From the IMG/VR virus record IMGVR_UViG_3300012153_000089, positions 1-64,000 of that record: a stretch of DNA of 64,000 nt; one strand, 5' to 3'. Source of the stretch: a virus. Taxonomy: Duplodnaviria; Heunggongvirae; Uroviricota; Caudoviricetes. A model generated the notes under the pieces. The model was not told the DNA's origin and did no database searches. It was given only the letters and a program-made list of their open reading frames with translations. The position numbers and the translations under genes were made by a program. Shown piece by piece: positions 1 to 54,605 of the stretch; the stretch's first letter is position 1; the number at the start of each line of letters is the position of its first letter.

Positions 1-1635
1 TTATATATACTTTCTTATATCAAACTCAATCTTTTCTCCCGTGTTTTCTAAGCTATAAGAGCTATCTCCGTCAAATCTTACATCAACAATAGGCTGATTT
101 TTTTCTCCGGTTCTTACTATAAGTTTATCGATCATGTTTAATACTTCTTCTTTTTCATATAACTTCTTAATTTCTTGTTCATTGATTTTTACAATTTTCT
201 CTTCTATTTGTTCTACCTGCTCCATTATGTTTTCATTAGATTGCGAATAGTTTTTGATCTCTTTTTTAGTGTTAACTATTTCTTTCTCTATCTTTTCACT
301 TTCAATGTCTAGTGTTTCTTTTTCAAATACTCCATCTAAATACAACTCTAAAAGTTTTTTCTTCTTGATTTCCAGTGATGATAAAGTACTATTTAAATCT
401 TTACTTTTATCAATATCTTGTTTATCAATTGACTCTACTAATAGATCTCTCTGTTTCTTTAGTGAACTGACCCTTGTCTCTTTATCTTTAACAAACATCT
501 CATAGTAACCGCCGCACTGGAGTGCCTGAAGATAATAATCTATCTCACTATAATTGACATTGGGATTGTCACAAAAATCTCTCCCCTTTGTCTTCTTGGT
601 TTTACAATTATAATACCTTCTTCCCTTATCAATATTGCTTGTATATACAGATCCGCATTTCTCACAGTAAATTAGTCCAGCATACTCAGTTATGCCTTTA
701 TATATCCCCTTTTGAATGATATGATTCACTTTGCTTATTTTGATATTTTGGACAGTCAAAAATAACTCCTTAGAGACAATTGGGGGTATGCGATCTTCTG
801 TGACAATCCATTCCTCTTTGGGTTTAATTGTTGAATATGTTTTCTTGTTAAAAACCACACCAGAATCATATTTATTTCTTGCCAATGTTCCCATGTATTT
901 CTCATTGGAGATCATTCTTTTAATCATTGAAGGAGAAAACTCTTTGTCTTTACGTGTGTAGTATTTTTTATCGTTCAATACATTTATAATTCTTCTTACT
1001 CCTAATCCTTTAGAATATAAGTTGAATATTTCGAGAACTATTTTAGCTTCTTTTTCATTTACGGTTAGTGAATTTGATTTCGGATGATAATCATATCCAA
1101 ACAAATTGCTGGCTCCAAATATCCTACCCCGCTGAGCAGACTCTCTCAGACCGAATCTTACTTTCTTTGATTTATCTATGGAGTCTTGTTGGTCAAAATT
1201 GAGAAATAAATTTAACATAAACTCTTTATCCGAACTATCAAAAAGCAAATCTATGTCTAGAAATTTTACATATACTTTGTTTTTGAGTAGCTCTCTAAGA
1301 ATATCTATAACCATAACGTTCCTTGCAAATCTACTAGTATTCTTAACAAGTATGACATCAAACTTTGGTTGTACACTTTGATCTATTTCGAAAACACTTC
1401 TGCTTTTTGTAACCTTGGTTTCAATTAGTCCAGCATCAGCCAACATTCTGGTAAAATGTTCCCGCTTGGTGAGACTTGTCCCTGTAATTCCTCTGTCAGC
1501 ATAGATATCGACCAATTCCATTGTTTCGCTTCTTCCCACTTCTCGTTCGAAAAATTGCTTTTGATTCTCGAAACTATTCTCTTGGTCTTTTGATGATGTA
1601 CTTACACGGCAATACGCAACTACTCTTTGTTTCAA
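1..1635 (-). CDS. large serine recombinase (phage integrase type)
   Basis: 544 aa. N-terminal resolvase/invertase catalytic domain (VAYCRVSTSSKDQ with catalytic Ser), recombinase domain, Cys-rich zinc ribbon (CEKCG...CKTKKTKGRDFCDNP) and C-terminal coiled coil. Stop codon at window bases 1-3. Confidence 0.9.
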   Translation of the reverse strand: MKQRVVAYCRVSTSSKDQENSFENQKQFFEREVGRSETMELVDIYADRGITGTSLTKREHFTRMLADAGLIETKVTKSRSVFEIDQSVQPKFDVILVKNTSRFARNVMVIDILRELLKNKVYVKFLDIDLLFDSSDKEFMLNLFLNFDQQDSIDKSKKVRFGLRESAQRGRIFGASNLFGYDYHPKSNSLTVNEKEAKIVLEIFNLYSKGLGVRRIINVLNDKKYYTRKDKEFSPSMIKRMISNEKYMGTLARNKYDSGVVFNKKTYSTIKPKEEWIVTEDRIPPIVSKELFLTVQNIKISKVNHIIQKGIYKGITEYAGLIYCEKCGSVYTSNIDKGRRYYNCKTKKTKGRDFCDNPNVNYSEIDYYLQALQCGGYYEMFVKDKETRVSSLKKQRDLLVESIDKQDIDKSKDLNSTLSSLEIKKKKLLELYLDGVFEKETLDIESEKIEKEIVNTKKEIKNYSQSNENIMEQVEQIEEKIVKINEQEIKKLYEKEEVLNMIDKLIVRTGEKNQPIVDVRFDGDSSYSLENTGEKIEFDIRKYI

Positions 1636-1793: not shown

Positions 1794-2345
1794 TTACTCT
1801 TTTCCATATGTATTTATTGCCTCCATTATAAAGTCTTTTAAGTGATAGTGCCATCTCGTTCTAGGTTTATATCCTTTAATCTCGATTCCTATCTCATCGC
1901 ATATTGCTATTGAAATACTACTTTTATTTACTTTGCTTCTATATGTATGTTCCTTGATTTGATTCTGAGCTATGTTTTGATACTTCAAAAACTCTTCTAT
2001 ATGTATAAAGTACACTTTATTATCTGGCTCACGGAAATTCATTATGAAACCTGATATAACACCATCATATGTATTTGCTTCATTTAGTTTATCGATCTGA
2101 TGTTGCTTAATTACACTTTCTTGGAAGCTGATCGACTTATCCTTTGTTGATTTAAGTTCTAGTGTAAAAAGGTGGCTGTCCGCAAACATCATACAGTCAT
2201 AGTCATTCTTAGTTACCCTCACTCTGTTACGAAGATCTGGTGGAATAAAAGTGTCTTTCAAACGTGTAAAGAAGATCTTTTCTGCTCCTTGTGCTGCCGA
2301 CTTCTGAAAATCTTCTTCAAAAACCTTACCTAGATTTGTAGCCAA
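1794..2345 (-). CDS. recU: RecU-like Holliday-junction resolvase (PD-(D/E)xK nuclease)
   Basis: 183 aa. Segment NDYDCMMFADSHLFTLELKSTKDK...DGVISGFIMNF parallels B. subtilis RecU DYNGIYKGRYIDFEAKET...DGICFVIISAF. TTG start. Confidence 0.55.
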   Translation of the reverse strand: MATNLGKVFEEDFQKSAAQGAEKIFFTRLKDTFIPPDLRNRVRVTKNDYDCMMFADSHLFTLELKSTKDKSISFQESVIKQHQIDKLNEANTYDGVISGFIMNFREPDNKVYFIHIEEFLKYQNIAQNQIKEHTYRSKVNKSSISIAICDEIGIEIKGYKPRTRWHYHLKDFIMEAINTYGKE

Positions 2346-2360
2346 TCAATCATTCCTCTC

Positions 2361-2489
2361 TTATTTACCTTCTTGTTTATCAACTAGTAGCTGATTTAGT
2401 ACTGTATCAATTACTTCTTTATATTCTTCATTGGTCAATCTACGTCCAATAATCTGTTCAATCTTTGACTTACTAAACTTGTTCTCCAT
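2361..2489 (-). CDS. small hypothetical protein (42 aa, below ORF-track cutoff)
   Basis: ATG start preceded by GGAGGA at 7 nt spacing. Lies between polymerase and RecU-like genes. Coordinates approximate. Confidence 0.4.
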   Translation of the reverse strand: MENKFSKSKIEQIIGRRLTNEEYKEVIDTVLNQLLVDKQEGK

Positions 2490-2500
2490 TTACAATCCTC

Positions 2501-5500
2501 CTATACTTTAACTCTCTCTTGGGAGACTTTAATGTTCCCCTTATTATCAATCTTATCGATAAGCATTGTAGTATGCCTCACATTTGAATCCTTATATCTA
2601 TATGGTCTAAACTGTGATCCTCTTCGATATCCATGTAAAACAAGTTTATTCCCACGAGTAAACCAACTTTTCTCAAGAATCTCTTTTGAACCGTCAGACT
2701 TGGGTCTTGATACTTGCTTATTGTAGTTCGCAAATGCCCCATCATAATACTTAACTGTGACTACTCCATCCACCGTTAATAATGTAACTGTATTTTTATT
2801 CTTGTCTTTATCTAATACAGTTCCTGCTATTGTACTAAGCTTAAACTTAGGTCTGCTTCCGTAGCGCGATTCTATTGTTCCAACTACAACTGGGTCTTCA
2901 GGTAATTCTCCGTAATTAGTGATGCCATATCTCTCATTATCAATATCTTTAAGTTCATGTTCAGTATAGTAAAATGATAGTGAGTCCATTTCCCATTTAC
3001 TAATTGATCCATCTGCATATGTATTCCATTCATTCTGATACATCTTTTTATTGAACATTTCTAAGGCTCCTTCAGTAGCCAACCATTCCTTGATCCCTTC
3101 CATTTTCTTATCGTATTCCTTTTTGAAGGTTGACTCTTTAATGACTGGGAAGTTATTACTATACTCAACAATTCCCTCACCAGAAAAGTGTTCATAGTAG
3201 TATGGTGTAGAGACTTTATCAAGGACATAGAATTTTTCTTTGTCTCTCTTGATGAATACTCTTTTCATTACATATTTTCTAAAGTTGAAAGTCTTACTGT
3301 ATTTCTCCATGCCCTCCGGTATTAATTTGTTTTCAATAACAGCGTTGAGGTTTTGAAGATTGAGTTTGGTTTTCGGTGTGTACAGTAATGCAATAAAATC
3401 TTTCATAATCTCTATTCTGGAGCCATATTCCTCAAAGCACCCCGCCTTGATCAATTGAATAACTTGAGATTTCTTTATTGCAGAAGTCTTATACATTCGC
3501 TCAATGAAATCGTTAAAGTTTAAATATGGTCTATTCTTAATGATACTTTGTACCACTTCATCTCCAATACCATTGATACCTTTTAAACCGAATATAATCT
3601 GATCATTGTCTATATCAGGTTCAAATCCGAATCCTGCTTTATTGATGCTAGGCAAACCAATTCTCACACCTCTTGCTTGCATGTTACCGATAGCCGCTGC
3701 AATTTTACCGTAATTTGTTGATTGCGATTTATGGTCTTCTTCTTCACCATCATCATCAATTGAAGCTGAGTTTACTGTTAAGCAAGCCGTTCTCCAATAT
3801 ATTGGATCATAATTAATATTAAGATTGGCTTCTTGTAACGCTATAACTGAGTATGCTAAGGTGTGTAGCACTGAAAATGAATATGATAATTGTCTTGTTA
3901 TTTGTACATTCCAAACATAATCTAAAATTTCTTTTCTGATCCCTAAAGCCTCTCCATCACAAAAGAATTGCTCTTTGATTTCTTGTAGAGACTTCTTCAT
4001 TTGCTTTGGTTTAGCGATACTTTTTCTCAGTTTGTTGGCACTTTTAATATCAAAATTAGCAATACTACTATCCATTGATATCAACATTACGGATTCCTGA
4101 GTATCTGCTACACCATTTAACTTCAATAGATGTTTTTCCATAATTTTAATTTCATCATTATTCAAACCGTAATCGTGCATTTCTTTGTACCATAGATCAA
4201 TGTTATTTTTGTGTTTAACAAAAGTGTCAATCGGAGATTCCCCATGGTCACTTAGTAGTCGCATCAATGAATTAGCCGCTGCCAACTCAATAAGATTGGT
4301 CGGTTTAACTTTTTTTACTGTTTCGATTCCAATTTCAGTTGAAAATTGAAAAAGATCAGTTATACTATCTGAACCAATAAGATCGTAAACTCTCTGATTC
4401 TCAATATCTATAACGTTAGGATGTAAATACTTATTGTATGTATTTCTTATGCTACCTTGCCATTCCATAAGATTATTCTTGATTAATTTATCCATGGTTA
4501 CTCTAATCTTATCCAGAGCTTCAATTGTCAACAGATCAAACTTCATATTAGAAACAGCTTCACAATCTTCCAGTGATAACTGAGTGACGTGTGTCCCATT
4601 AGGTGCTGTCATCATAGCATTCGTTTTGTGGTATTCTTCATTAAACACAATAACTCCACTAGCATGAATGCTGCGTTTGTTGATTAATCCTTCTATTTTC
4701 ATTGAAACCTGAAGCCAATTTTCATGTTTATTGATTTCATCAACAAATTCTTTTACAGGTTTTCGTTCTTCTTCTTCATTCCCATAAAGACAGTCACTTA
4801 ATGTCCAGTTACTCCCACGCTCAAAAGGAATCAATCCAGATACATACATTGCTGTATCACTATCAACGCCCAAGCCCCTAGCTGCTGTTTGAACTGCTGA
4901 TTTGGATGCCTCTGTACCAAAAGTACATACTTGCAACACCCGATTTTCGCCAAAGTATTTCTTCAATTGTCTGAAAATTTGATTACGTTTAGCTGCTTCT
5001 GTATCTATATCCACATCCGGGAATTCGGGGCGTTCTGATGTTAAATGTCTCCAATGGGGCATTTCAATACCGTACTCCAGTGGGTTTATTTGTGTAATAC
5101 CCAACAAAAAACAAATCAAATAGCCAGCAGCAGAGCCACGAGAAGGCCCAACTAAACTGTTACCGCAATCGTCATCCCACATTACATTGACAATTTCTCG
5201 TACTGTAATGTAATAACTCGCAATAGATTGATTTAGATTCTCAGAGATTTTCCACAGTTCACCCAATTCTGTGTCAATCCGATTTGCTACTTCATGTAAC
5301 TTCTCTTTGCTATATGTATTGTAAGGGAGGAGTTCGTAAAATCCGTCTTCAATTAACTTAACAATATATCTGTCTTGGTCATTTGATGCGTGAGCCATCT
5401 TATTGATATATTCATACTTATTGTAAATCGATCTGAATAAACCTCTGAGTTGAAAATCGGGCAATTCAATTTTTGGAATGACTGTTGGTTTAAGAATCGT

Positions 5501-6445
5501 GTATTCTTGAATTTTTTCTCCTATTCTAACTGTATTGTCGAGAGCTCTTTTGACCACATCATGACTAAGATAGCTTAAACGTTCGTTGATCTCTTCATGA
5601 TTCTGTACAAATGTAGCTTCATAGAAGGCATCAACCTCTCTTTCACCTTCTTTTGCATTAAGGAATGCTTTATGAACGATTCTGTCTTCAGGTCTAAGAT
5701 AATGACTATCTGTTGTAACTATGTATTCAAGCCCAAACTTCTCAGCTAATTTAAGTAATTCCTTATTACAATAAATTTGTTCTTCACTATAAGCGGGTTG
5801 CAGTTCAAGATAAAAATCCTCTTTTCCAAATACATCTAAGCACCAATCTGTAAAGTCACACACTTTTTTATAAGCAACTTTTGCTTTATCTGTTTCCCCA
5901 GCGTCTAGATGGTGCTTCATTTCCAGTAATCCAATACAGTGAGGTGAACCAAGACATGCACTTGAAGCAATTAAATGACCGGGATCTTCATTAATAACTG
6001 ATTTAAGGAAGTCTTTAACTGTAGGAGTCCTTAGCATTGGCCCCGTAAAATATGATTGTCCCCAAGCTACCGAACTCATATATCGAAGCTGCTCATGCCC
6101 AATTTCATCCTTGGCTAAGAGAATGAAATGTGGGAATTTAGTTCGCCCACCAGATTTATAGTTGTCCCTAACTTCTTCAAGGCTATCTACTAGATAGATT
6201 TCATTACCGAGAATGAGCTTAAAGTCTTTATCAATCTTTCCTTTTTCCTTTAGTTTCTCTGTTGCTTGGATTGCTTTTACATGTGACGATACAGATTCAT
6301 GCTCTGTAAATGCCACACCCTTATGCCCCATATCGTGTACTGTTTGGATTAATTCTTCAACTCTGTTGGTGGTGTCCCTGAGCTTAAGATTAGAGCCCCT
6401 ATCGCTATGATTGTGAAGTAGTATCGAATTGCATTGATTACACAA
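2501..6445 (-). CDS. dnaE: DNA polymerase III alpha subunit (DnaE-type replicative polymerase)
   Basis: 1314 aa. N-terminal PHP domain (ILLHNHSDRGSNL...AFTEHESV) followed by polymerase core. TTG start with GGGAGGTG SD. Confidence 0.9.
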   Translation of the reverse strand: MCNQCNSILLHNHSDRGSNLKLRDTTNRVEELIQTVHDMGHKGVAFTEHESVSSHVKAIQATEKLKEKGKIDKDFKLILGNEIYLVDSLEEVRDNYKSGGRTKFPHFILLAKDEIGHEQLRYMSSVAWGQSYFTGPMLRTPTVKDFLKSVINEDPGHLIASSACLGSPHCIGLLEMKHHLDAGETDKAKVAYKKVCDFTDWCLDVFGKEDFYLELQPAYSEEQIYCNKELLKLAEKFGLEYIVTTDSHYLRPEDRIVHKAFLNAKEGEREVDAFYEATFVQNHEEINERLSYLSHDVVKRALDNTVRIGEKIQEYTILKPTVIPKIELPDFQLRGLFRSIYNKYEYINKMAHASNDQDRYIVKLIEDGFYELLPYNTYSKEKLHEVANRIDTELGELWKISENLNQSIASYYITVREIVNVMWDDDCGNSLVGPSRGSAAGYLICFLLGITQINPLEYGIEMPHWRHLTSERPEFPDVDIDTEAAKRNQIFRQLKKYFGENRVLQVCTFGTEASKSAVQTAARGLGVDSDTAMYVSGLIPFERGSNWTLSDCLYGNEEEERKPVKEFVDEINKHENWLQVSMKIEGLINKRSIHASGVIVFNEEYHKTNAMMTAPNGTHVTQLSLEDCEAVSNMKFDLLTIEALDKIRVTMDKLIKNNLMEWQGSIRNTYNKYLHPNVIDIENQRVYDLIGSDSITDLFQFSTEIGIETVKKVKPTNLIELAAANSLMRLLSDHGESPIDTFVKHKNNIDLWYKEMHDYGLNNDEIKIMEKHLLKLNGVADTQESVMLISMDSSIANFDIKSANKLRKSIAKPKQMKKSLQEIKEQFFCDGEALGIRKEILDYVWNVQITRQLSYSFSVLHTLAYSVIALQEANLNINYDPIYWRTACLTVNSASIDDDGEEEDHKSQSTNYGKIAAAIGNMQARGVRIGLPSINKAGFGFEPDIDNDQIIFGLKGINGIGDEVVQSIIKNRPYLNFNDFIERMYKTSAIKKSQVIQLIKAGCFEEYGSRIEIMKDFIALLYTPKTKLNLQNLNAVIENKLIPEGMEKYSKTFNFRKYVMKRVFIKRDKEKFYVLDKVSTPYYYEHFSGEGIVEYSNNFPVIKESTFKKEYDKKMEGIKEWLATEGALEMFNKKMYQNEWNTYADGSISKWEMDSLSFYYTEHELKDIDNERYGITNYGELPEDPVVVGTIESRYGSRPKFKLSTIAGTVLDKDKNKNTVTLLTVDGVVTVKYYDGAFANYNKQVSRPKSDGSKEILEKSWFTRGNKLVLHGYRRGSQFRPYRYKDSNVRHTTMLIDKIDNKGNIKVSQERVKV

Positions 6446-6600
6446 TTGTTTGAAGCACCTCCCATTTCATTTCTTGATCAAATATTAATTTCACATTTTA
6501 TTTTATTATAAACAGCTACACTCTTATCACCTTCTTTAGGTAGTATACTGGTGATTCAACAACATACTACTGGTTCGATACTCGTCACAATCTATGTATA

Positions 6601-6616
6601 GTAGGCCGAAGCCTAC
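6601..6616 (-). other. stable hairpin (GTAGGC-UUCG-GCCUAC on the transcript) immediately 3' of the parR-like stop
   Basis: Perfect 6-bp stem with UUCG tetraloop. No U-tract follows, so it is an RNA-stability or processing hairpin rather than a clear intrinsic terminator. Confidence 0.35.
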
Positions 6617-6617
6617 A

Positions 6618-6899
6618 TTAAAATGATTCGAACAATTCTTCCAACTTTTCCTCATATAGCTCTGTATCCTCTGATTGTTCTTGTTCCGGTTCACTCTGAA
6701 TAATGAATTCAACAGTTCCTTCATTAGTTGGACGGTTCAAATAAGTGTTGTGTGAGTAAGGCGTACTACCAAAGAACAGTAACCTAAGCGCTCTCCTTAC
6801 GACATCGCTCTTATCTTCATGTGGAGGTAGGTTTTTCCAAGCTTCGCGTAGATCTTCATCTTTAATCGGTCTTAATCTTGCTCTTGCCGCTATTTCCAT
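6618..6899 (-). CDS. ParR-like adaptor / small DNA-binding partner of the actin-like ATPase
   Basis: 93 aa, basic N-terminus (MEIAARARLRPIK) and acidic C-terminus. Start overlaps the ParM-like stop by 10 nt, indicating translational coupling. The call rests on position. Confidence 0.4.
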   Translation of the reverse strand: MEIAARARLRPIKDEDLREAWKNLPPHEDKSDVVRRALRLLFFGSTPYSHNTYLNRPTNEGTVEFIIQSEPEQEQSEDTELYEEKLEELFESF

Positions 6900-7834
6900 G
6901 ATTTTTTACCTATCTTCCCGTATCCTCTCACTTGAGCCAACTGATCCATCAAGACTTTGTTAGGTAAATCTAAGTAATCAAAGATATAACGAGCAGCTCC
7001 ACCAGCAATTAAATATATGTCAAATTCCGTATTCAGACTTTCAATTTCATTCTTAATCTGTAAAGCTAAAGATTTAAATGCTCTTCTAATCAAAGGAACA
7101 ATGTTGTGCCCTTGGTATTTACCTGAGATCACGTATGGGTCTAATTCGTAAATTGCAGGAGTATGTCCAGTTAATTTTTGTATGTAAGTTTGCAGTAGTG
7201 TGTAGGCTTTCTCAACCCCAACCAATACACTTTTTGACTCTTTCATTATTGTTGACTTATCAAAACCCAATAAGTTTAGAGTGTAAAACCCCAAGTCTGC
7301 CGTAAGTATTTTTTTCTTTGCTTCTTTTAATCTGATGATCTTTCCATCGTCGTCTAGCAAATAATCCATTGTAATACCCAAACCCTGTGGAACCGTCTTG
7401 CACCTTTCAACGATGGGTTGTACTGGGTAACTCTTCCCTTTACCCTTGCGAATTTTATATTCTCCTTGATCGGCTAAGCCAAGTAGTTTTTCCTCGAATG
7501 GAGCTTTTTGTGTGAAGTAAAAGTTAATGGGTAGCCCACTGACCAAATTCACTTTATCTTTTTTTGCTAAGTATCCCAAAGTGGTCTTCATAACAACATC
7601 GCTAGTTTCGGCTTCAGCCTTTTTGTTGTTTAGTGAGAAGTACTTTATGTCACTGAATTCTAGTGCAACATTCCCCACAAATAGTTCATCATTATAGACG
7701 AAATGATCTGATTTAATATTTTGATCAAACATGTCTTTTGCTTCTCCTACTATTGTGGGCTGACGATAAAATTTTCCGTCTCTTTCTGCTTTGGTCCATT
7801 TAAAACCCAGATCTAAGTTCAGTATATTGCTCAA
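6890..7834 (-). CDS. actin-like segregation ATPase (ParM/Alp/StbA family)
   Basis: 314 aa. Actin-fold motifs LDLGFKWTKA (phosphate 1), ILTADLGFYTLNL (phosphate 2) and IYLIAGGAARYI (adenosine). TTG start with GAGGAGG SD. Confidence 0.75.
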   Translation of the reverse strand: MSNILNLDLGFKWTKAERDGKFYRQPTIVGEAKDMFDQNIKSDHFVYNDELFVGNVALEFSDIKYFSLNNKKAEAETSDVVMKTTLGYLAKKDKVNLVSGLPINFYFTQKAPFEEKLLGLADQGEYKIRKGKGKSYPVQPIVERCKTVPQGLGITMDYLLDDDGKIIRLKEAKKKILTADLGFYTLNLLGFDKSTIMKESKSVLVGVEKAYTLLQTYIQKLTGHTPAIYELDPYVISGKYQGHNIVPLIRRAFKSLALQIKNEIESLNTEFDIYLIAGGAARYIFDYLDLPNKVLMDQLAQVRGYGKIGKKSWK

Positions 7835-10644: not shown

Positions 10645-10661
10645 TTATTTAAACTGCTATG
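10645..10661 (-). promoter_or_regulatory. variant copy of the conserved AT-rich element (AAGTGTTTTATTTAAAC), copy 8
   Basis: overlaps the stop of the GHKL ATPase gene and lies upstream of the sigma-factor gene. Confidence 0.35.
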
Positions 10662-12486
10662 CCAGTGCCAAACCATCAATCAGACAGTCGTACAAGTCAT
10701 TCGGTCTTTCAATGTCATCAAAATTCATAAGACTTACCGCACGTACAATTTCTTTCAGATTCATTAGCAAAAACTTGTAGTCGTGAATATCTAGATTCTC
10801 ATCGCTACTTTCTCTTAGTTTGCTGTCATTAATAATTGATCTGTCCACGTATACTTTATTATTTATGTAATCGTGTGCAGCAACAAATTCATCTTCAATC
10901 TTTTCTATTGTATGATTGAGCACTTCAATATTGGTTTGCTTAATAACCATGACATCACCAATAGCAAATACATTTCGACTAAAACCAACCATACGACTTA
11001 TCATATCAAGCAACATTAAAGCTCTACTTTCTTTTAAACTCAATCTAGTATTTGAGATCGATGCTTTAATTAATGTGTTCTCTGTTAGTTGAGAAATATG
11101 AACAATATTTTGATCTTCACCTATTGCCTCTAGTATACTGCTTTCAAGTTTGTTTCTAGATACGATCACTTTTAGTTTGTAATGTTCAGCAATTTTAAAC
11201 TTTTTCTCATGTTCAACAATTTGATCAAATGACAACCAAAAGACAGGTTCCGATCCGAAGTCAATTTGCTGTCCTTTTCGTTCCTCGATTCTTTCTTCAT
11301 CAATCTCTGGTTTACTATAACCACCCGACGACCCCTCATATCCCGACCATGATCTAATCCCTTTTGCACTGGGAGCTAGATTTTTAACCTCTTGTTCAAA
11401 CTCAATTTCATGATGATTTGACTCAGATTGCCTTGCTGCTTCTGATCTGATAAATACCTCAAATTGATTAACATTTTTAATATCAGGATTTTTGCGTTTT
11501 GCCAATGCGATGCCTTGTAGATATTTAGAATCTGCATCGTCTACTGTATTGAATATAAGAAAGGTCATTTGACTTTTAAGTTTGTGCTTATCTGCGTTCC
11601 AAGAAATTGCATCGATATGTGAATCTATGTATTTTTGTTCTCCATTTAAAAAGCTTTCATTAGAAAGTTGTTTGATATGCTCTCTTACTTCCTTAAGGAA
11701 AAATTCAAACTTGTCATCCCTGACAATATCTTTACGATCTGGAGAGGTTAGATTTAGCGTTTTATCATTGATGTGTAAATCGCCTTTCACATAGTAGAAG
11801 TTTTCAAGTTTAGTTACCAACCTACCTTTATAGAACACTTTTAGGTCTTGACTGAATCCTGAATTCAATGCGATCCAACCTTGAATATTGTTCGATTCAA
11901 TCACACTAGAAAACACACTGCCATCCGTATCTGTCAAATTCTTTTTCGGTTGAAGCTTACCGTCACAGTGGATATCTAACTCATGAATATATTTACCCAG
12001 CAACTCAACTCGTTCGCGGATCAATGATGGCTGAACTTCTGTAAAATCAAAATTGTTAAGTATCAATTTAAAACCTTCATATGTATTGTCTGTATCGGTT
12101 ACTTCTATGTTTGTTTTATTATTCTGAATCATCTCGCCAACATTAAAGACAATATGTTTATTTCCCGTAAACACTTCAATATGATCGCTCACAGTAATGT
12201 TGCTGAAGAATCCCATTCCAAACGGCGACTCTGATTTTTGAATATCTTCATTCCACTCTGACTCAGCGATTGAAAATAGGGCTTGTGGATTGGCTAGTGC
12301 TTGACCATTATTTTCAATCGTAACTTTCTTGTTGTAGTAGTCTATTGTTACATGAACCTCAGTAGCTTTGGCTCGTTGAGCGTTCTGAATATCTTCATCA
12401 AGGAATGACAGCTTGTCCTTGAATGTACTCTGTCGTAGCAGTTTTAATTGGTTAATTACATTAACCTTTACTTGAACATTACTCAA
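10657..12486 (-). CDS. GHKL-superfamily ATPase domain protein (MutL/MORC/Hsp90-type HATPase fold), 609 aa
   Basis: N-terminal Bergerat-fold motifs: DIQNAQRAKA (N box), VTIENNGQAL (G1), SPFGMGFFS (G2), EVFTG. The remaining ~450 aa are unrecognised. No TOPRIM, so not a GyrB/topoisomerase. Confidence 0.6.
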   Translation of the reverse strand: MSNVQVKVNVINQLKLLRQSTFKDKLSFLDEDIQNAQRAKATEVHVTIDYYNKKVTIENNGQALANPQALFSIAESEWNEDIQKSESPFGMGFFSNITVSDHIEVFTGNKHIVFNVGEMIQNNKTNIEVTDTDNTYEGFKLILNNFDFTEVQPSLIRERVELLGKYIHELDIHCDGKLQPKKNLTDTDGSVFSSVIESNNIQGWIALNSGFSQDLKVFYKGRLVTKLENFYYVKGDLHINDKTLNLTSPDRKDIVRDDKFEFFLKEVREHIKQLSNESFLNGEQKYIDSHIDAISWNADKHKLKSQMTFLIFNTVDDADSKYLQGIALAKRKNPDIKNVNQFEVFIRSEAARQSESNHHEIEFEQEVKNLAPSAKGIRSWSGYEGSSGGYSKPEIDEERIEERKGQQIDFGSEPVFWLSFDQIVEHEKKFKIAEHYKLKVIVSRNKLESSILEAIGEDQNIVHISQLTENTLIKASISNTRLSLKESRALMLLDMISRMVGFSRNVFAIGDVMVIKQTNIEVLNHTIEKIEDEFVAAHDYINNKVYVDRSIINDSKLRESSDENLDIHDYKFLLMNLKEIVRAVSLMNFDDIERPNDLYDCLIDGLALA

Positions 12487-17630: not shown

Positions 17631-18152
17631 TCACCCTTTCAGCGACATAATTAGTATTGATATAAAATTGAATGCTGCATGACTTATTATTGGAACTATG
17701 AGACTGTTGCTTTTGTTGTAATACCAGCACCACAAGAATCCAATAAATACATAGCCTAAAAATGCTGCTGGATTGAAATGTGGAATTGCGAATAATATTG
17801 AGCTGATTAATGCTGATACCTTAAATCCTAATTTGTGATTGAGTCGTTTAAATATGAATCCTCTACATATGTACTCTTCTATGATGGGGCTGAATGTTAC
17901 ACTGTAGATATATACCACTGGGACAGAAATTGGTGTATCTAGTATCGTAGCCGTTTCAAAATATTTACTTGTCAAAGAATTGACAATGTTAAATCCAATA
18001 AAAGCAAACATTGTTGAGTAAAATAAATTTTCAAGATTATTTCTTAAATTAAATCTGTTTAATTCTTCAATTATCTTGTTCCGTTGCTTGACTATAAGCC
18101 ACCCCAACATTATCGGTGGTAAAATTACCAATGCCAATTTAAAGATTATCAA
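17631..18152 (-). CDS. CPBP-family intramembrane metalloprotease (CAAX protease / Abi family)
   Basis: 173 aa, multi-TM. Motifs EEYICRGF (EExxxR), FAIPH (FxxxH) and HAAFN (HxxxN). Confidence 0.7.
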   Translation of the reverse strand: MIIFKLALVILPPIMLGWLIVKQRNKIIEELNRFNLRNNLENLFYSTMFAFIGFNIVNSLTSKYFETATILDTPISVPVVYIYSVTFSPIIEEYICRGFIFKRLNHKLGFKVSALISSILFAIPHFNPAAFLGYVFIGFLWCWYYNKSNSLIVPIISHAAFNFISILIMSLKG

Positions 18153-28872: not shown

Positions 28873-29730
28873 TTATTTAACCTCTTCGGCCTTAGTGGTC
28901 GGCAGTTGAATCATTGGAGTATTAGATCCACTTACATAGGGAAGTGCTCCATCCCATTTCTTAATTGTTTCATATTGAACGAGTTGATTAGAGAGTGACT
29001 GCTGAAGCTCTTTATTTGCTTTAGCTTGACCTTCTGCCTCAATCAATAGTTTGTCTGCATTACCTTGTGCCTCTACTCTTTTACGGTCTGCTTCTTTCTT
29101 GGCAATTTCTAGCTCAGTCGTTTTACGTTCCAGTTCTTGAGAAGCTTCCACACGTTTATCAATTGCTTCTTGAGTCTTAGCATCTGGCTGAGGAACGCCC
29201 ACGGTTACGTTTGATACGATAAAGCCCAACTCTTTAACATCATCGGCAAAACGTTGCTGAACATCTACTCCCGCTTCAGAAGACTTTTCACCATAAACAT
29301 CAATTACTGTAAACTTAGAGATCCCTTTGCGAGCTGCATCACGGAATCGTGTTTTGAGATATGTATCTTCAATTTCTTGAATGCCAATTGGCCCAAATGT
29401 GTTAAAAATGGATGACACCTTGCTTGGCTCTACTTGGTAGTTATAAGCAAAATCAATCGTGATGTTTTTACCGTCAGATGTAGCAATTTGAATATCTTTA
29501 TATTCTACTGTTTGAATTCGAATTGGATATTTAGTTACTTTATCAAACGCGCCAACCAACTTCCATCCTTGGCTTAGTGTACTGTCCTTCACACCTCCAT
29601 TTGGTGAATATACGACACCGACATATCCATTAGGAATTCTTGTTACAAAGAAACTCAGTAGCACTACTCCCAGAACAATAGCCAATCCAACCGCAACTGC
29701 TCCTACCTTAAATGTCTTTAGATTTTTCAT
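28873..29730 (-). CDS. SPFH / band-7 family membrane protein (HflK/C-, prohibitin-, flotillin-like)
   Basis: 285 aa. N-terminal TM helix, SPFH core, and a C-terminal coiled coil (ELEIAKKEADRKRVEAQGNADKLLIEAEGQAKAN) typical of HflK/C. Confidence 0.8.
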   Translation of the reverse strand: MKNLKTFKVGAVAVGLAIVLGVVLLSFFVTRIPNGYVGVVYSPNGGVKDSTLSQGWKLVGAFDKVTKYPIRIQTVEYKDIQIATSDGKNITIDFAYNYQVEPSKVSSIFNTFGPIGIQEIEDTYLKTRFRDAARKGISKFTVIDVYGEKSSEAGVDVQQRFADDVKELGFIVSNVTVGVPQPDAKTQEAIDKRVEASQELERKTTELEIAKKEADRKRVEAQGNADKLLIEAEGQAKANKELQQSLSNQLVQYETIKKWDGALPYVSGSNTPMIQLPTTKAEEVK

Positions 29731-29866
29731 TTACTTTCTCCTCTTGTTTAAATTTATTGTATTTATTAATGACTTTACTTCCTACTTTAGTGAATACAGG
29801 GAACATTAATGTCCACAAACCGAAGCCTAAGATAAAGATTAGTATGAGTCCTCCAATTAACGGCAT
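29708..29866 (-). CDS. 52-aa single-TM peptide overlapping the SPFH gene start (below cutoff)
   Basis: MPLIGGLILIFILGFGLWTLMFPVF... Strong AGAGGAGG SD at 7 nt. 23-nt out-of-frame overlap with the SPFH start. Coordinates approximate. Confidence 0.45.
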   Translation of the reverse strand: MPLIGGLILIFILGFGLWTLMFPVFTKVGSKVINKYNKFKQEEKVNEKSKDI

Positions 29867-30480: not shown

Positions 30481-31002
30481 TTACTTAAACTTGAAAAATC
30501 TTTTGATTGCAAGATACCCCACAAATTGCATTATTGTCTTAACAACCACTTGACCAAGAATCGCATATCCTACTGCCTCCCATGGGATAAATCCAGCCCC
30601 AATTGGTGATAGACCGATGATTACAAACAATCCAGAGTCGATTATGCCTCCCACAGTTCCACTTAACAAAACTCTCTTCTCAAACGAGCATTTAAGTCTA
30701 GTAAATACTTCCGTATCAAACGTTTCTGAGAAAATAAATGTAATTGCACTTGCAAATACAATCCATAGAGTGTCACCCAATAGCCAAGAAGTTAATGCGG
30801 ATAACAATAATGCTATAAAGATGATATAGTATGTATTTTTACGACCATATTTTTGCTGTACTAAATCTCTAAGAATAAATGTAGCCCCAATAAATATTGT
30901 TCCCATTGGTACAATAAACTTCCAAAGTACAATAGGACTGAAACTTGCTGTAACTACGTTTGCAACGATAATGGCTAAAATATAAAGTAAAATTCTAATC
31001 AT
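30481..31002 (-). CDS. YhhQ/COG1738-like membrane protein (putative queuosine-precursor preQ0/preQ1 transporter)
   Basis: 173 aa, 5-6 TM helices. FIGATFILRDLVQ and TVGGIIDSGLFVI parallel E. coli YhhQ FPFIFLATDLTVR and GNVSDTLAFFFI. Confidence 0.55.
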   Translation of the reverse strand: MIRILLYILAIIVANVVTASFSPIVLWKFIVPMGTIFIGATFILRDLVQQKYGRKNTYYIIFIALLLSALTSWLLGDTLWIVFASAITFIFSETFDTEVFTRLKCSFEKRVLLSGTVGGIIDSGLFVIIGLSPIGAGFIPWEAVGYAILGQVVVKTIMQFVGYLAIKRFFKFK

Positions 31003-31012
31003 TTAATGCCTC

Positions 31013-31825
31013 CTAAATCGCTTCAATTATTTTTTTAGCTTTATGCATATTTTCTATGGTTAAGTCTGCTGGATGATAATCTACGAATTTCTGTTGTTTG
31101 TTATAAGTCTTAACCCACCTCTCTTGATCAACATCAATAACACTGCCCATAGTGGACATAATCTCGAAAGAGGAAGTATCGCAACTAATATTCAGTAGAT
31201 CAACGTCTACTCCAATGACTTCTAAAACTTCTTTTATGTATGCTACTTCTTTTAAAACACTGAATGTACCAACTCCGAAAATATGAACGTCTTTAACTTT
31301 AGATTTGCTGATAATGGGCAGTCCAATTTTAATAGCATCCAATAGTTTGAACTTTATCTCATTCACTCTTCCTGACATTGCCACTCCGCCCAGCCCAATA
31401 CAATCTTCTGGTGAAGCTATTTTTAATGTTTCAACCAAACATTCAATGTATTCCTTTGTTGTTGCGCCCTGAATCATGAGTACTAATTGCCTTGGGTTCA
31501 ACTCTTCACGTTTAGAAACTAAGTATTTATTGGCCTCAATTGTATCTTCAACGTTTCCAATGTGGTCATAAGCAACAATTCTCTCACAAATCATGCCAAC
31601 CTTGCTCTCAAGTTTCAGTTGTCGTTCTAGTGCTTCCTCAACTGTTATGCGCTTATCTTTGTCAGTATCCTGAAAAGCGCCGCTATCCATCAAGATTTTC
31701 GTTTCAGGGTTCCTGATAGTAATGCCTTTATACTTTGGATTCAAGCAGACACTTTGCGTGATGAATTCAGTGTTTAGTTCCTTGGTATTTAGTTTGTCAT
31801 TGCATTTTGATAAATATAGTCTCAA
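31013..31825 (-). CDS. dpdA: TGT-family transglycosylase, DpdA-like (putative DNA-guanine transglycosylase for 7-deazaguanine insertion)
   Basis: 270 aa. Catalytic-Asp motif ILMDSGAFQD (cf. tRNA-guanine transglycosylase LTDSGGFQ), GLGGVAMSG and HIFGVG motifs. No C-terminal Zn subdomain. Short, phage-type length. Confidence 0.6.
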   Translation of the reverse strand: MRLYLSKCNDKLNTKELNTEFITQSVCLNPKYKGITIRNPETKILMDSGAFQDTDKDKRITVEEALERQLKLESKVGMICERIVAYDHIGNVEDTIEANKYLVSKREELNPRQLVLMIQGATTKEYIECLVETLKIASPEDCIGLGGVAMSGRVNEIKFKLLDAIKIGLPIISKSKVKDVHIFGVGTFSVLKEVAYIKEVLEVIGVDVDLLNISCDTSSFEIMSTMGSVIDVDQERWVKTYNKQQKFVDYHPADLTIENMHKAKKIIEAI

Positions 31826-31829
31826 CTAA

Positions 31830-32258
31830 TCACTCTCCGATGTTGTTTTTAAACCAAGACAACTGCTGACCAATACCCAATCCTTTTAAGGGGATATTGA
31901 CCTTAATGCCTTGTTGCTCAAGCAATGGAACCAAATATTTTCTATACTTGTCTCCTGCATAAATTGAGATTTCTACCTCACTACTCTCTCCGATATTATC
32001 AATAATCTGTTGGTATACATTTTTTGACCATGAAATAATCTGTTCTTTTGAAAGATCATTTAGGGTGTAATTGTATGGATCGATACTTGTTTCTGGATCA
32101 AGAAGCTCATGTAGTGCACTAAGAATATAATATTGATCATGGTGTTTCTCTGAGTATTTTCTTGCTTTCTTAAATAGGTCTCCAATGTATAGATCTTTTG
32201 CTGCTACATTCTCGGACAATTTGTTCTTTCCACAACTAATTAGTGCTATTGATTTCAT
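31830..32258 (-). CDS. hypothetical protein (142 aa) upstream of and nearly abutting dpdA-like
   Basis: MKSIALISCGKNK... 5-nt gap to dpdA suggests a co-operonic partner. Function unknown. Confidence 0.5.
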   Translation of the reverse strand: MKSIALISCGKNKLSENVAAKDLYIGDLFKKARKYSEKHHDQYYILSALHELLDPETSIDPYNYTLNDLSKEQIISWSKNVYQQIIDNIGESSEVEISIYAGDKYRKYLVPLLEQQGIKVNIPLKGLGIGQQLSWFKNNIGE

Positions 32259-32312: not shown

Positions 32313-32567
32313 TTAAAATGTTGTACATCCCTTACGATATCTCTTGCCTTTATATTTGAATCGCGCGATGAATGTACGAACTAGAATTAATCCTTCATTC
32401 ACACGCTCAATCACAATTACACCCTTTTCAGTCATCCATCTTAATTTTCCTTGTACATTTGGAATGGAGGATATCATCTTAATGAGATATCCCACCCCAA
32501 CATTGCTTTGCTCGCATCTTACCCGTGCATGATCACTGACTTTGATTCTTACTTTTTGCTTGCTCAT
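32313..32567 (-). CDS. hypothetical protein (84 aa)
   Basis: packed ORF. Confidence 0.45.
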   Translation of the reverse strand: MSKQKVRIKVSDHARVRCEQSNVGVGYLIKMISSIPNVQGKLRWMTEKGVIVIERVNEGLILVRTFIARFKYKGKRYRKGCTTF

Positions 32568-32572
32568 ATGTA

Positions 32573-32794
32573 TTACCGTTTGTTGGACTTGCGTTGTGTA
32601 CGTTGTTTCTTAAACTTAGTCAACACAGATCCTTCCTTCCGACCATTTTCTGCTGGTTTAACATATTGGAACGTGAAGCCCTTTTTCGCTGCCTGTTGTT
32701 TCGCTGCAATGACTGCACCTAGATAGTCTGTTGGTAGGTTGTCGATTACCACGCTTTGATTACTGTTGTTAGTTGCAATTCCGTAAAATTTCAT
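32573..32794 (-). CDS. hypothetical basic protein (73 aa)
   Basis: Lys/Arg-rich C-terminus. Confidence 0.4.
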   Translation of the reverse strand: MKFYGIATNNSNQSVVIDNLPTDYLGAVIAAKQQAAKKGFTFQYVKPAENGRKEGSVLTKFKKQRTQRKSNKR

Positions 32795-36782: not shown

Positions 36783-37064
36783 TCAATTCTCGTCTTGATC
36801 GCTATTGCTTTCTACAATCATCCAATCTTCTGCAAAAATGTCCATCTGTGATGGAAACCAAGGTGCAAACTTATTGTTCGCAGTTTTTATTTCTATGTAA
36901 GGTACATGTTCAAAGTCACTGCTATTGCCATCACTTGAGAATGGCGAAGATGGTGGAGTAACCTTATGCAACCACACTCCTTTTTCAACCCATCCTTCGC
37001 GCGCTACCATATTCCAATCATCTTTCTTCATATAATCAATCGCTTGACCAAAATTCATTTGCAA
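36783..37064 (-). CDS. DUF2829-type small phage protein (candidate Tad2-like anti-Thoeris sponge)
   Basis: 93 aa. N-terminus MNFGQAIDYMKKDDWNMVAREGW matches the characteristic MxFGEAlxalKxGkkvaRxGW signature of this family, from memory. Confidence 0.45.
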   Translation of the reverse strand: MQMNFGQAIDYMKKDDWNMVAREGWVEKGVWLHKVTPPSSPFSSDGNSSDFEHVPYIEIKTANNKFAPWFPSQMDIFAEDWMIVESNSDQDEN

Positions 37065-54149: not shown

Positions 54150-54605
54150 TTATGGCTCCCATCTGTACAATGTCACTTCATAATCACTGAACACTTCTTC
54201 AATAATTCCATAAACAACTTTCCAGTTTCCATTAGCTAATCCACAACCAATGTTGTATGGCAATGCAACTGAATAACCAAACTTTTTAGCACGTATTTTC
54301 AATGAATCAAGCGCAGCCCTCAATGCATCATAATCTGTGTATACAATGTTCTTATTTCTTCCGTATGTAGTTTGTCCGAATAAATTTGCTATAACTCTCT
54401 TTTCATTTACCTTAGTCGTCCAACATAGCCCCAGTAATCTATCACCATATTCGTGACATGCTAACTGGTAAAACGGATAAGCATCTGGGTACTTCTGTTT
54501 AATTGCTTTAGCTATTCCTGAGCCCCATACACCCTTTGTATTTGTTTGATGTCCTATAATGTCCTCTGTTGCATTGAGTAAATCTCCATCAATTACTTTT
54601 ATCAT
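54150..54605 (-). CDS. macro-domain protein (ADP-ribose binding or processing)
   Basis: 151 aa. DIIGHQTNTKGVWGSGIAKAI parallels the macro-domain DIIVNAAN...GGGV motif. Confidence 0.7.
   Translation of the reverse strand: MIKVIDGDLLNATEDIIGHQTNTKGVWGSGIAKAIKQKYPDAYPFYQLACHEYGDRLLGLCWTTKVNEKRVIANLFGQTTYGRNKNIVYTDYDALRAALDSLKIRAKKFGYSVALPYNIGCGLANGNWKVVYGIIEEVFSDYEVTLYRWEP

Follow-up and report, generated by a model that had tools for sequence, protein, structure and literature searches.

We analyzed a 64 000 nt stretch of viral DNA (Caudoviricetes; positions 1 to 64,000 of IMG/VR record IMGVR_UViG_3300012153_000089), referred to below as the window. Three consecutive genes on its minus strand encode a protein of the DUF6884 family, a protein resembling tRNA-guanine transglycosylases (TGTs) and a membrane protein of the YhhQ family. 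We propose that this trio is a 7-deazaguanine DNA-modification operon of an SPβ-like temperate Paenibacillus phage, and we assign this reading a probability of about 0.65. The initial annotation, made from the sequence alone, had described the second and third genes as a DpdA-like DNA transglycosylase with a precursor transporter, in an element that encodes no preQ0 synthesis within the window. This core reading is backed by fold, motifs, curated family thresholds and the gene neighbourhoods of relatives. All three open reading frames (ORFs) named there are present on the minus strand, as follows.

31830..32258, minus strand: 142-aa DUF6884 protein (DpdC-family, YaaA-like fold), encoded by the leading gene of the trio; candidate enzyme for conversion of the DNA nitrile dPreQ0 to its amide dADG

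31013..31825, minus strand: 270-aa TIM-barrel protein with a TTG start and no Zn subdomain; predicted to be a divergent DpdA-type guanine transglycosylase

30481..31002, minus strand: predicted YhhQ/COG1738-family preQ0/preQ1 transporter, 173 aa; about six transmembrane (TM) segments

The 142-aa gene is separated by 4 nt from the 270-aa gene, and the latter by 10 nt from the 173-aa gene. Every start is preceded by a Shine-Dalgarno sequence (AGAGG, GGAGAG and GGAGG), and a promoter and terminator scan of the trio gave no signal above chance between the genes. That the ORFs are genuine and have not arisen by chance is evident from the 76 homologues of the TGT-like protein and 96 of the DUF6884 protein, with identities down to ∼30%; the AlphaFold models of both proteins have a predicted local distance difference test (pLDDT) score of ∼96. 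A shorter, 225-aa JGI gene model of the TGT-like protein, starting from Met46 and thus exactly at MDSGAF (also present in the public calls P0004 and P0009), was rejected because the 45 N-terminal residues are conserved and confidently modeled. Most homologues of the 270-aa protein begin at the position that corresponds to the TTG at 31825, which is preceded by GGAGAG at a distance of 7 nt.

The window comes from an SPβ-like temperate phage that resides in a Paenibacillus chromosome. Its DNA polymerase III alpha subunit (PolIII-alpha) is 55% identical over the full length to YorL of SPβ, and it also carries a large serine recombinase (1..1635), YopX, dihydrofolate reductase, ThyA and a Tad2-like gene. 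An identical DUF6884 protein is encoded on a 1.73-Mb contig, and the nearest named homologues are from Paenibacillus. The trio lies among the phage genes for replication and nucleotide metabolism. The results given here cover the 64 kb of the window, roughly one half of an SPβ-like genome.

The TGT fold of the 270-aa protein, proposed originally from a sequence motif, is borne out by structure modeling, by fold matches in PDB and among viral proteins and by the motifs. The AlphaFold2 model has a pLDDT of 95.7 and a predicted template modeling score of 0.93. In a Foldseek search against PDB the nine best matches were TGTs together with DpdA (7ui4), which inserts preQ0 into DNA; these had probability 1.0 and E-values from 1e-7 to 8e-6, while unrelated TIM barrels appeared from an E-value of ∼8e-4, at least 100-fold worse than TGT/DpdA. 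A search of BFVD gave 33 viral proteins at E-value ≤1e-3, nearly all of them phage TGT/DpdA with 11–18% identity; DpdA2 of Vibrio nt-1 and DpdA3 of Cellulophaga phiST were among these matches (14–15% identity).

The motif ILMDSGAFQ occupies residues 44–52. An alignment of 47 family sequences showed D47-S48-G49, D87, Q119-G120, G146-G147, H181-x-F183-G184 and D216 to be invariant or nearly so, with D47, D87 and D216 invariant in all 47; in the model all these conserved TGT-like residues lie at the C-terminal ends of the barrel strands. TGT and DpdA enzymes have three invariant aspartates, which act as general acid/base, in base recognition and as nucleophile (PMC10164549); in 7ui4 the reference residues are D95, D130 and D256. 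The D47/D87/D216 pattern agrees with the three-aspartate scheme. The DSGAF motif had been assigned to the nucleophile region; its aspartate would rather be the counterpart of the general acid/base, and the nucleophile counterpart would be D216 in SCDTSS.

The absence of a Zn subdomain, stated at the outset, stands. Neither the CxCxxC…H zinc site nor the tRNA-binding subdomain of tRNA TGTs was found in the 270-aa protein; its last cysteine is residue 215, 54 residues follow D216, and the C-terminal part shows no conserved grouping of Cys and His. With no cysteine after residue 215 and no such grouping, a TGT-type Zn site is not possible.

As to the position of this family among DpdAs, its hidden Markov model (HMM) singles out the unannotated gene at the DpdA position of the 7-deazaguanine cluster in phage Greed. 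The motifs FLDSGAF, ITIGGMVG, LHAFGITS and YSCDSSSW of Greed DpdA1 correspond to LMDSGAF, IGLGGVAM, VHIFGVGT and ISCDTSSF in the window protein, and hhalign aligned the family with the DpdA1 alignment at a probability of 79% (E-value 1.6e-5), with D216 placed on the aspartate of the DpdA1 SCD motif. Greed DpdA1 and the DpdA1-like protein of Fusobacterium phage phiFN37 are matched by the family profile at motifs only. An hhalign comparison with the single HRTV-29 DpdA sequence was not significant, and the family profile also misses that protein; no sequence-level clustering with the named subfamilies (bDpdA, DpdA1-4) was seen among the reference DpdAs compared. By these comparisons the family appears as a small DpdA-like clade, remote from all DpdAs compared and nearest in motifs to DpdA1, and we regard the 270-aa protein as very probably a DpdA-type DNA transglycosylase.

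An exhaustive HMM search for this family returned 307 cluster representatives in 1.84 billion proteins. Close relatives were present in 2 of ∼185 000 species genomes, both Paenibacillus, and a scan of the genome collection with the single 270-aa protein gave nothing. The family is unannotated in every source, and databases label the 270-aa protein as hypothetical; no DpdA or DpdC model of NCBIfam matched the TGT-like or the DUF6884 protein.

The 173-aa protein passes the curated thresholds of the transporter families to which it had been assigned by local similarity. The Pfam family Vut_1 (PF02592) was matched with an E-value of 4e-13 and 50.4 bits (gathering score 27.2), the equivalog TIGR00697 ‘queuosine precursor transporter’ with 56.9 (cutoff 50.95) and phrog_4899 with an E-value of 6e-32. 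A hydropathy scan gave about six hydrophobic segments, in line with the earlier count of 5–6 TM segments. Relatives in isolated phages were found in Dp-1, MS1, Queuovirinae (one annotated as ‘putative preQ0 transporter’) and Vibrio and Rhizobium phages, and almost all of these are known or predicted 7-deazaguanine-DNA phages. On this sequence evidence we predict with high confidence that the protein is a queuosine-precursor importer. It shares with the E. coli preQ0/preQ1 importer YhhQ (COG1738) the Vut_1 and TIGR00697 families and the approximate number of TM segments; it differs in being phage-encoded and shorter (173 aa versus 201 positions of the TIGR00697 model).

The 142-aa gene, left unassigned in the initial annotation, encodes a full-length DUF6884 (PF21818) protein: the match has an E-value of 3e-47, scores 160.6 bits against a threshold of 30 and covers positions 1–134 of the 135 in the profile. 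According to the Pfam curators, DUF6884 proteins resemble YaaA, bind DNA and may flip bases, and their motifs are CxxxK and LSAxxG (PMC11701544). The protein has the YaaA-like ‘cantaloupe’ fold together with these motifs, and C9, K13 and L46-S47-A48 are conserved in it. The link to DNA modification comes through DpdC of bacterial dpd islands, which belongs to PF21818 in 1720 of 2335 cases and to PF03883 in five (GATOR-GC supplement); DpdC turns dPreQ0-DNA into dADG-DNA independently of DpdA and DpdB (PMC10164549).

A DUF6884 gene adjoins the TGT-like gene in the window and in eight related loci. Nine of 23 family loci have this adjacency, while only 0.2% of GenBank phage records contain any DUF6884; a rough binomial estimate for this adjacency is ∼1e-18, a value inflated by kinship of the loci. 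Independently, DUF6884 genes adjoin unrelated DpdAs in phiFN37 and in halovirus HRTV-29. Thus, DUF6884 accompanies four distinct DpdA lineages, the bacterial dpdABC islands included. Close relatives of the window enzyme in three loci (L004, L005 and L033; 71–72% identity) have no DUF6884 gene, so DUF6884 is dispensable for the transglycosylase, which is more in keeping with an optional tailoring enzyme than with an indispensable cofactor. By analogy with DpdC, we put the chance that the window protein acts as a DpdC-like hydratase at about even. The set is therefore larger than the minimal pair of DpdA and transporter described initially, and the presence of the DUF6884 gene as a third component makes dADG a more probable end product than dPreQ0 or dPreQ1.

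The earlier statement that the 64 kb contain no queC, queD, queE or folE holds: neither a Pfam scan (ORFs of ≥70 aa) nor phmmer searches with phage-derived probes detected any of them. The Pfam scan skipped five large ORFs: PolIII-alpha and four that were recognized by eye, namely the alpha and beta subunits of ribonucleotide reductase, DnaB and DinB. The phmmer probes (phage QueC, QueD, QueE and FolE) were run on every window ORF of 40 aa or more, these five included. No preQ1 riboswitch or other Rfam family and no tRNA was detected in the window, and DndB, ParB_N, SNF2, PLD and DEAD had no Pfam match in its ORFs of at least 70 aa other than the five large ones. The phage is thus likely to rely on host-made or imported preQ0. 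Phages that have DpdA only and rely on host preQ0 are a recognized class, with a demonstrated example in Salmonella phage 7-11.

Gene neighbourhoods of relatives were surveyed in TGT-like loci of 21 viral, two genome and one metagenome sequences. The composition of the loci was as follows.

DUF6884, TGT-like and YhhQ: the window, L002, L003, L006, L010 and L032 (Paenibacillus oleatilyticus SM69); also L008, in permuted order (YhhQ-TGT-DUF6884)

TGT-like and YhhQ only: L004, L005, L011, L012, L013, L015 and L033

DUF6884 and TGT-like only: L007 and L009

TGT-like alone: L001, L014, L016, L017, L018, L019, L020, L021 and L022

L007 (IMGVR_UViG_3300025000_000061, 2138..7676) holds a dense DNA-modification island, in which genes for an N6/N4 DNA methylase, QueD, QueE, QueC, DUF6884, a 73-aa ORF, the TGT-like protein and a Mom-family protein follow each other in one direction. 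This locus has no YhhQ, and QueD-QueE-QueC stand directly upstream of DUF6884. Such make-or-import complementarity of QueD/E/C and YhhQ indicates that the substrate is a product of the preQ0 pathway. In L022 (5854..8592) and P0323 the TGT-like domain is fused to ParB_N and HTH_ParB, the superfamily of DpdB, which argues for DNA as the substrate. The fusion proteins of L022, P0323, P0311 and P0320 are 900–1050 aa long, with ParB_N and HTH_ParB as the partner in all but P0320, where it is DUF3102. The distant relative in L001 is surrounded by DNA methylase and Lar genes. A weak QueF-like gene lies just upstream of the L022 fusion, and in other long TGT-like fusions (P0310, P0338, P0360 and P0391) the partners have no Pfam match.

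Taken as an operon, the trio could work in the following way. The YhhQ-type permease would raise the preQ0 pool of the cell, either by import or by supplementing the queuosine pathway of the host. Once the phage DNA has been replicated, the DpdA-type enzyme would put preQ0 in the place of guanine in the duplex, with D216 as the nucleophile, D47 as the general acid/base and D87 reading the edge of the base. The DUF6884 protein, with its YaaA-like DNA-binding, base-flipping fold and conserved Cys-x3-Lys motif, may act in situ on dPreQ0, whose nitrile it would hydrate to give the amide dADG. The modified DNA would be expected to resist restriction. Of this scheme, the fold, family membership, conserved residues, operon structure and recurrent linkage were observed; DNA as substrate, preQ0 as the base put in, the DpdC-like reaction and protection from restriction are inferences. 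The likely product is phage DNA modified with dADG, or with dPreQ0.

Several observations weigh against this reading. At the level of sequence, the Pfam TGT family (PF01702) matched the 270-aa protein with an E-value of 8.8e-5 and 22.2 bits, below the gathering score of 26.3 (TIGR00449 gave 7.7e-5), and at E-value ≤0.01 it recognizes a single one of the 47 family members, the window protein itself, missing the other 46. The family profile found nothing among PDB sequences, 7ui4 included, and megablast and tblastn searches against 50 697 GenBank phage records gave no relative of the 270-aa protein. A DpdB/ParB-like gene was not found in the window, whereas bacterial DpdA needs DpdB. With regard to the DUF6884 protein, the glycine of LSAxxG is replaced by glutamate. 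Stand-alone DUF6884 proteins equally similar to it (38–44% identity) are encoded on plasmids beside GIY-YIG or thermonuclease genes, as well as by Mu-like, Caulobacter, Bradyrhizobium and haloarchaeal viruses in which no DpdA-like gene was seen in the vicinity. Because stand-alone DUF6884 is common where DpdA is absent, DpdC-like chemistry can only be inferred for the window protein. The plasmid cases are from Aromatoleum, Sphingobium, Tolypothrix and haloarchaea (L037, L038, L039, H83 and H94), with GIY-YIG or thermonuclease alongside and no dpdA; none of the plasmid genes inspected as a source of the DpdC of dpd islands was in a dpd context.

Some of these points have a ready answer. The authentic DpdA1 proteins of Queuovirinae have no precomputed Pfam domain either, so a missing Pfam TGT match is normal for phage DpdAs. 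A profile search against the TGT family had been named initially as a check; it does yield a TGT match, though below threshold, and it has no force as a refutation since both the family and true DpdA1 proteins escape Pfam TGT. Phage DpdAs are known to function without DpdB.

The points on DUF6884 leave room for an explanation that differs in the third component only: DpdA and YhhQ insert preQ0 or preQ1, and the DUF6884 protein is not a nitrile hydratase but a DNA-binding, base-flipping or abasic-site accessory (perhaps standing in for DpdB), or just a DNA-directed or anti-defence protein that travels with mobile elements. Besides the wide distribution of stand-alone DUF6884 on plasmids and phages without DpdA, the substituted LSAxxG glycine and the missing DpdB-like gene, it is favored by the proposal of the Pfam curators that the family acts in DNA repair or base flipping and by YfjM, which binds abasic and RNA-base lesions. 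However, the PF21818 protein DpdC has a biochemically established dPreQ0-to-dADG activity that does not depend on DpdA or DpdB, an obligatory cofactor would not be missing from close DpdA relatives, and phiFN37 has both a ParB-like gene and DUF6884, hence the two are not simple substitutes. We consider this explanation unlikely, at roughly one chance in four.

A quite different possibility is that the genes serve queuosine salvage, as a cassette for lysogenic conversion or auxiliary metabolism, with a transporter feeding the host and a TGT-like enzyme acting on tRNA. The automated annotation of phiFN37 has such labels (‘moron, auxiliary metabolic gene’ and ‘queuosine salvage’), tRNA TGTs are among the best PDB fold matches, and the element is temperate, given its serine recombinase and YorL-like polymerase. 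Yet the 270-aa protein lacks both the Zn subdomain and a C-terminal tRNA-binding domain, its relatives are fused to a DNA-binding ParB domain or have DNA methylases, Mom and Lar as neighbours, the DUF6884/DpdC partner acts on DNA, and the trio sits in the replication and nucleotide-metabolism block; we therefore hold a role in tRNA modification to be quite improbable. Least probable of all, to the point of being nearly negligible, is that the TIM barrel of the 270-aa protein belongs to an enzyme with some unrelated activity, whose likeness to TGT is convergent or vestigial: the sub-threshold Pfam match in one of 47 members, the lack of any sequence match to a PDB chain and the 11–18% identity to TGT/DpdA structures would allow it, but authentic DpdA1 has the TGT-specific DSG(A/G)F as well, with the motifs following in the same order, fold searches set TGT/DpdA well apart from other TIM barrels, and relatives are linked to QueC/D/E and YhhQ.

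The reading of the trio as a DNA-modification operon can be compared with known systems. The bacterial Dpd module DpdA-DpdB-DpdC of Salmonella Montevideo (PMC10164549) likewise combines a TGT-fold enzyme with a PF21818 protein, and the predicted conversion is the same, from G to dPreQ0 to dADG; a YhhQ gene is present in ∼9% of bacterial dpd islands. In contrast to the bacterial system, the window has neither the DpdB ATPase nor the restriction genes dpdD-K, and its 270-aa enzyme is much shorter than bDpdA and is devoid of the large Ins8 insertion. Sequence similarity to 7ui4 is undetectable, the link being through the fold only; a single-sequence PDB search with the 270-aa protein gave spurious matches to designed repeats only. 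Since the trio is carried by a temperate phage, its presumed role is counter-defence and not self-marking for a restriction system.

The DpdA1 clusters of Queuovirinae (phages CAjan, Seurat and Greed; PMC6884629, PMC7544227) share with the window a short Zn-less DpdA, the motif chain DSGAF … GG … HxFG … SCD(S/T)SS and a YhhQ-type transporter. The similarity of the enzymes is remote only, seen by hhalign at 79% and with no BLAST match. FolE, QueD, QueE and QueC are all encoded by Queuovirinae, whose cluster gave no DUF6884 match in the 14-kb stretch examined; the window is the reverse. The trio would work like the DpdA/DpdC half of the bacterial Dpd module joined to a YhhQ of the Queuovirinae type.

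In phiFN37 (OR492271.1, 71539..73848; L036, 1215..3524) genes for a ParB-like protein, a TGT (267 aa), DUF6884 and YhhQ are consecutive. The DUF6884 proteins of phiFN37 and the window are 35% identical (E-value 4e-24) and the transporters are homologous. The phiFN37 locus differs in its DpdA1-like DpdA, with two short motifs matched by the window family profile, in the additional ParB-like gene and in the order TGT, DUF6884, YhhQ. A second ParB-like copy is located 1 kb downstream, and the DUF6884 gene is annotated as hypothetical. A literature search gave no paper interpreting this gene row.

Salmonella phage 7-11 and HRTV-29 also have no preQ0 pathway of their own, and their DpdAs belong to subfamilies different from that of the window. 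In HRTV-29 (genus Dpdavirus; L025, 4001..5126, gp32-gp33) the DUF6884 gene overlaps the DpdA gene by 8 nt, and no transporter is present in the stretch examined. The HRTV-29 DUF6884 protein is annotated as ‘peroxide stress protein YaaA’ and was published among unrelated stress and metabolic genes. No phage DpdC has been reported in the phage literature that could be searched, and the searchable phage papers attribute phage dADG to other routes or to oxidation. What sets the present case apart is a distinct and much shorter DpdA clade, with no DpdB or restriction genes and with a DpdC-family partner, in a temperate SPβ-like Firmicute phage.

One could speculate further that an unnamed DpdA clade and a phage DpdC make up a DpdB-independent two-enzyme route to dADG-DNA, and that small DUF6884 proteins are a general family for base tailoring and counter-defence in mobile elements, of which DpdC is the first characterized member. 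In a prophage, moreover, the operon might at a low level of expression also mark the chromosome of the lysogen. We see this broader idea as a long shot, at about one chance in five.

SPβ-type phages are a genetic model. DNA modification with 7-deazaguanines is an active topic in phage-host conflict, and as the hidden DpdA clade described here escapes Pfam TGT, annotation and the GenBank phages, such modifications are probably under-counted, in particular in SPβ-type temperate phages of Firmicutes. Surveys of 7-deazaguanine DNA modification depend on the recognition of DpdA, which has been termed a signature protein (PMC10516641). The presence of a DpdC-family gene in DpdA operons of three unrelated viral lineages offers a testable enzymatic source of phage dADG, and the occurrence of either the transporter or QueD/E/C in relatives constitutes a natural experiment on precursor supply in phages.

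Some other genes of the window deserve mention. The Tad2-like gene noted above (36783..37064, minus strand) encodes a 93-aa protein with a Tad2-like Thoeris anti-defence domain (PF11195, E-value 5e-18), a second counter-defence gene of the same early region. About 750 nt downstream of the trio lies a gene for an SPFH/Band-7 protein (28873..29866, minus strand; PF01145, E-value 9e-32), overlapped by a 52-aa membrane ORF; SPFH/Band-7 homologues are also encoded in the related loci L002 and L004. Upstream, between a RecJ-like gene and the trio, there are two small ORFs of 84 and 73 aa (32313..32794, minus strand) with no family match; both are conserved in L005, at a distance of ∼5.5 kb from the TGT-like gene. 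A gene at 54150..54605, taken by eye for a macro-domain gene, was dropped as Pfam gave no confirmation. Farther away, also on the minus strand, are genes for an actin-like (ALP_N) segregation protein (6890..7834), a 609-aa HATPase_c_3 protein following a sigma-factor gene (10657..12486) and an Rce1-like CAAX protease (17631..18152).

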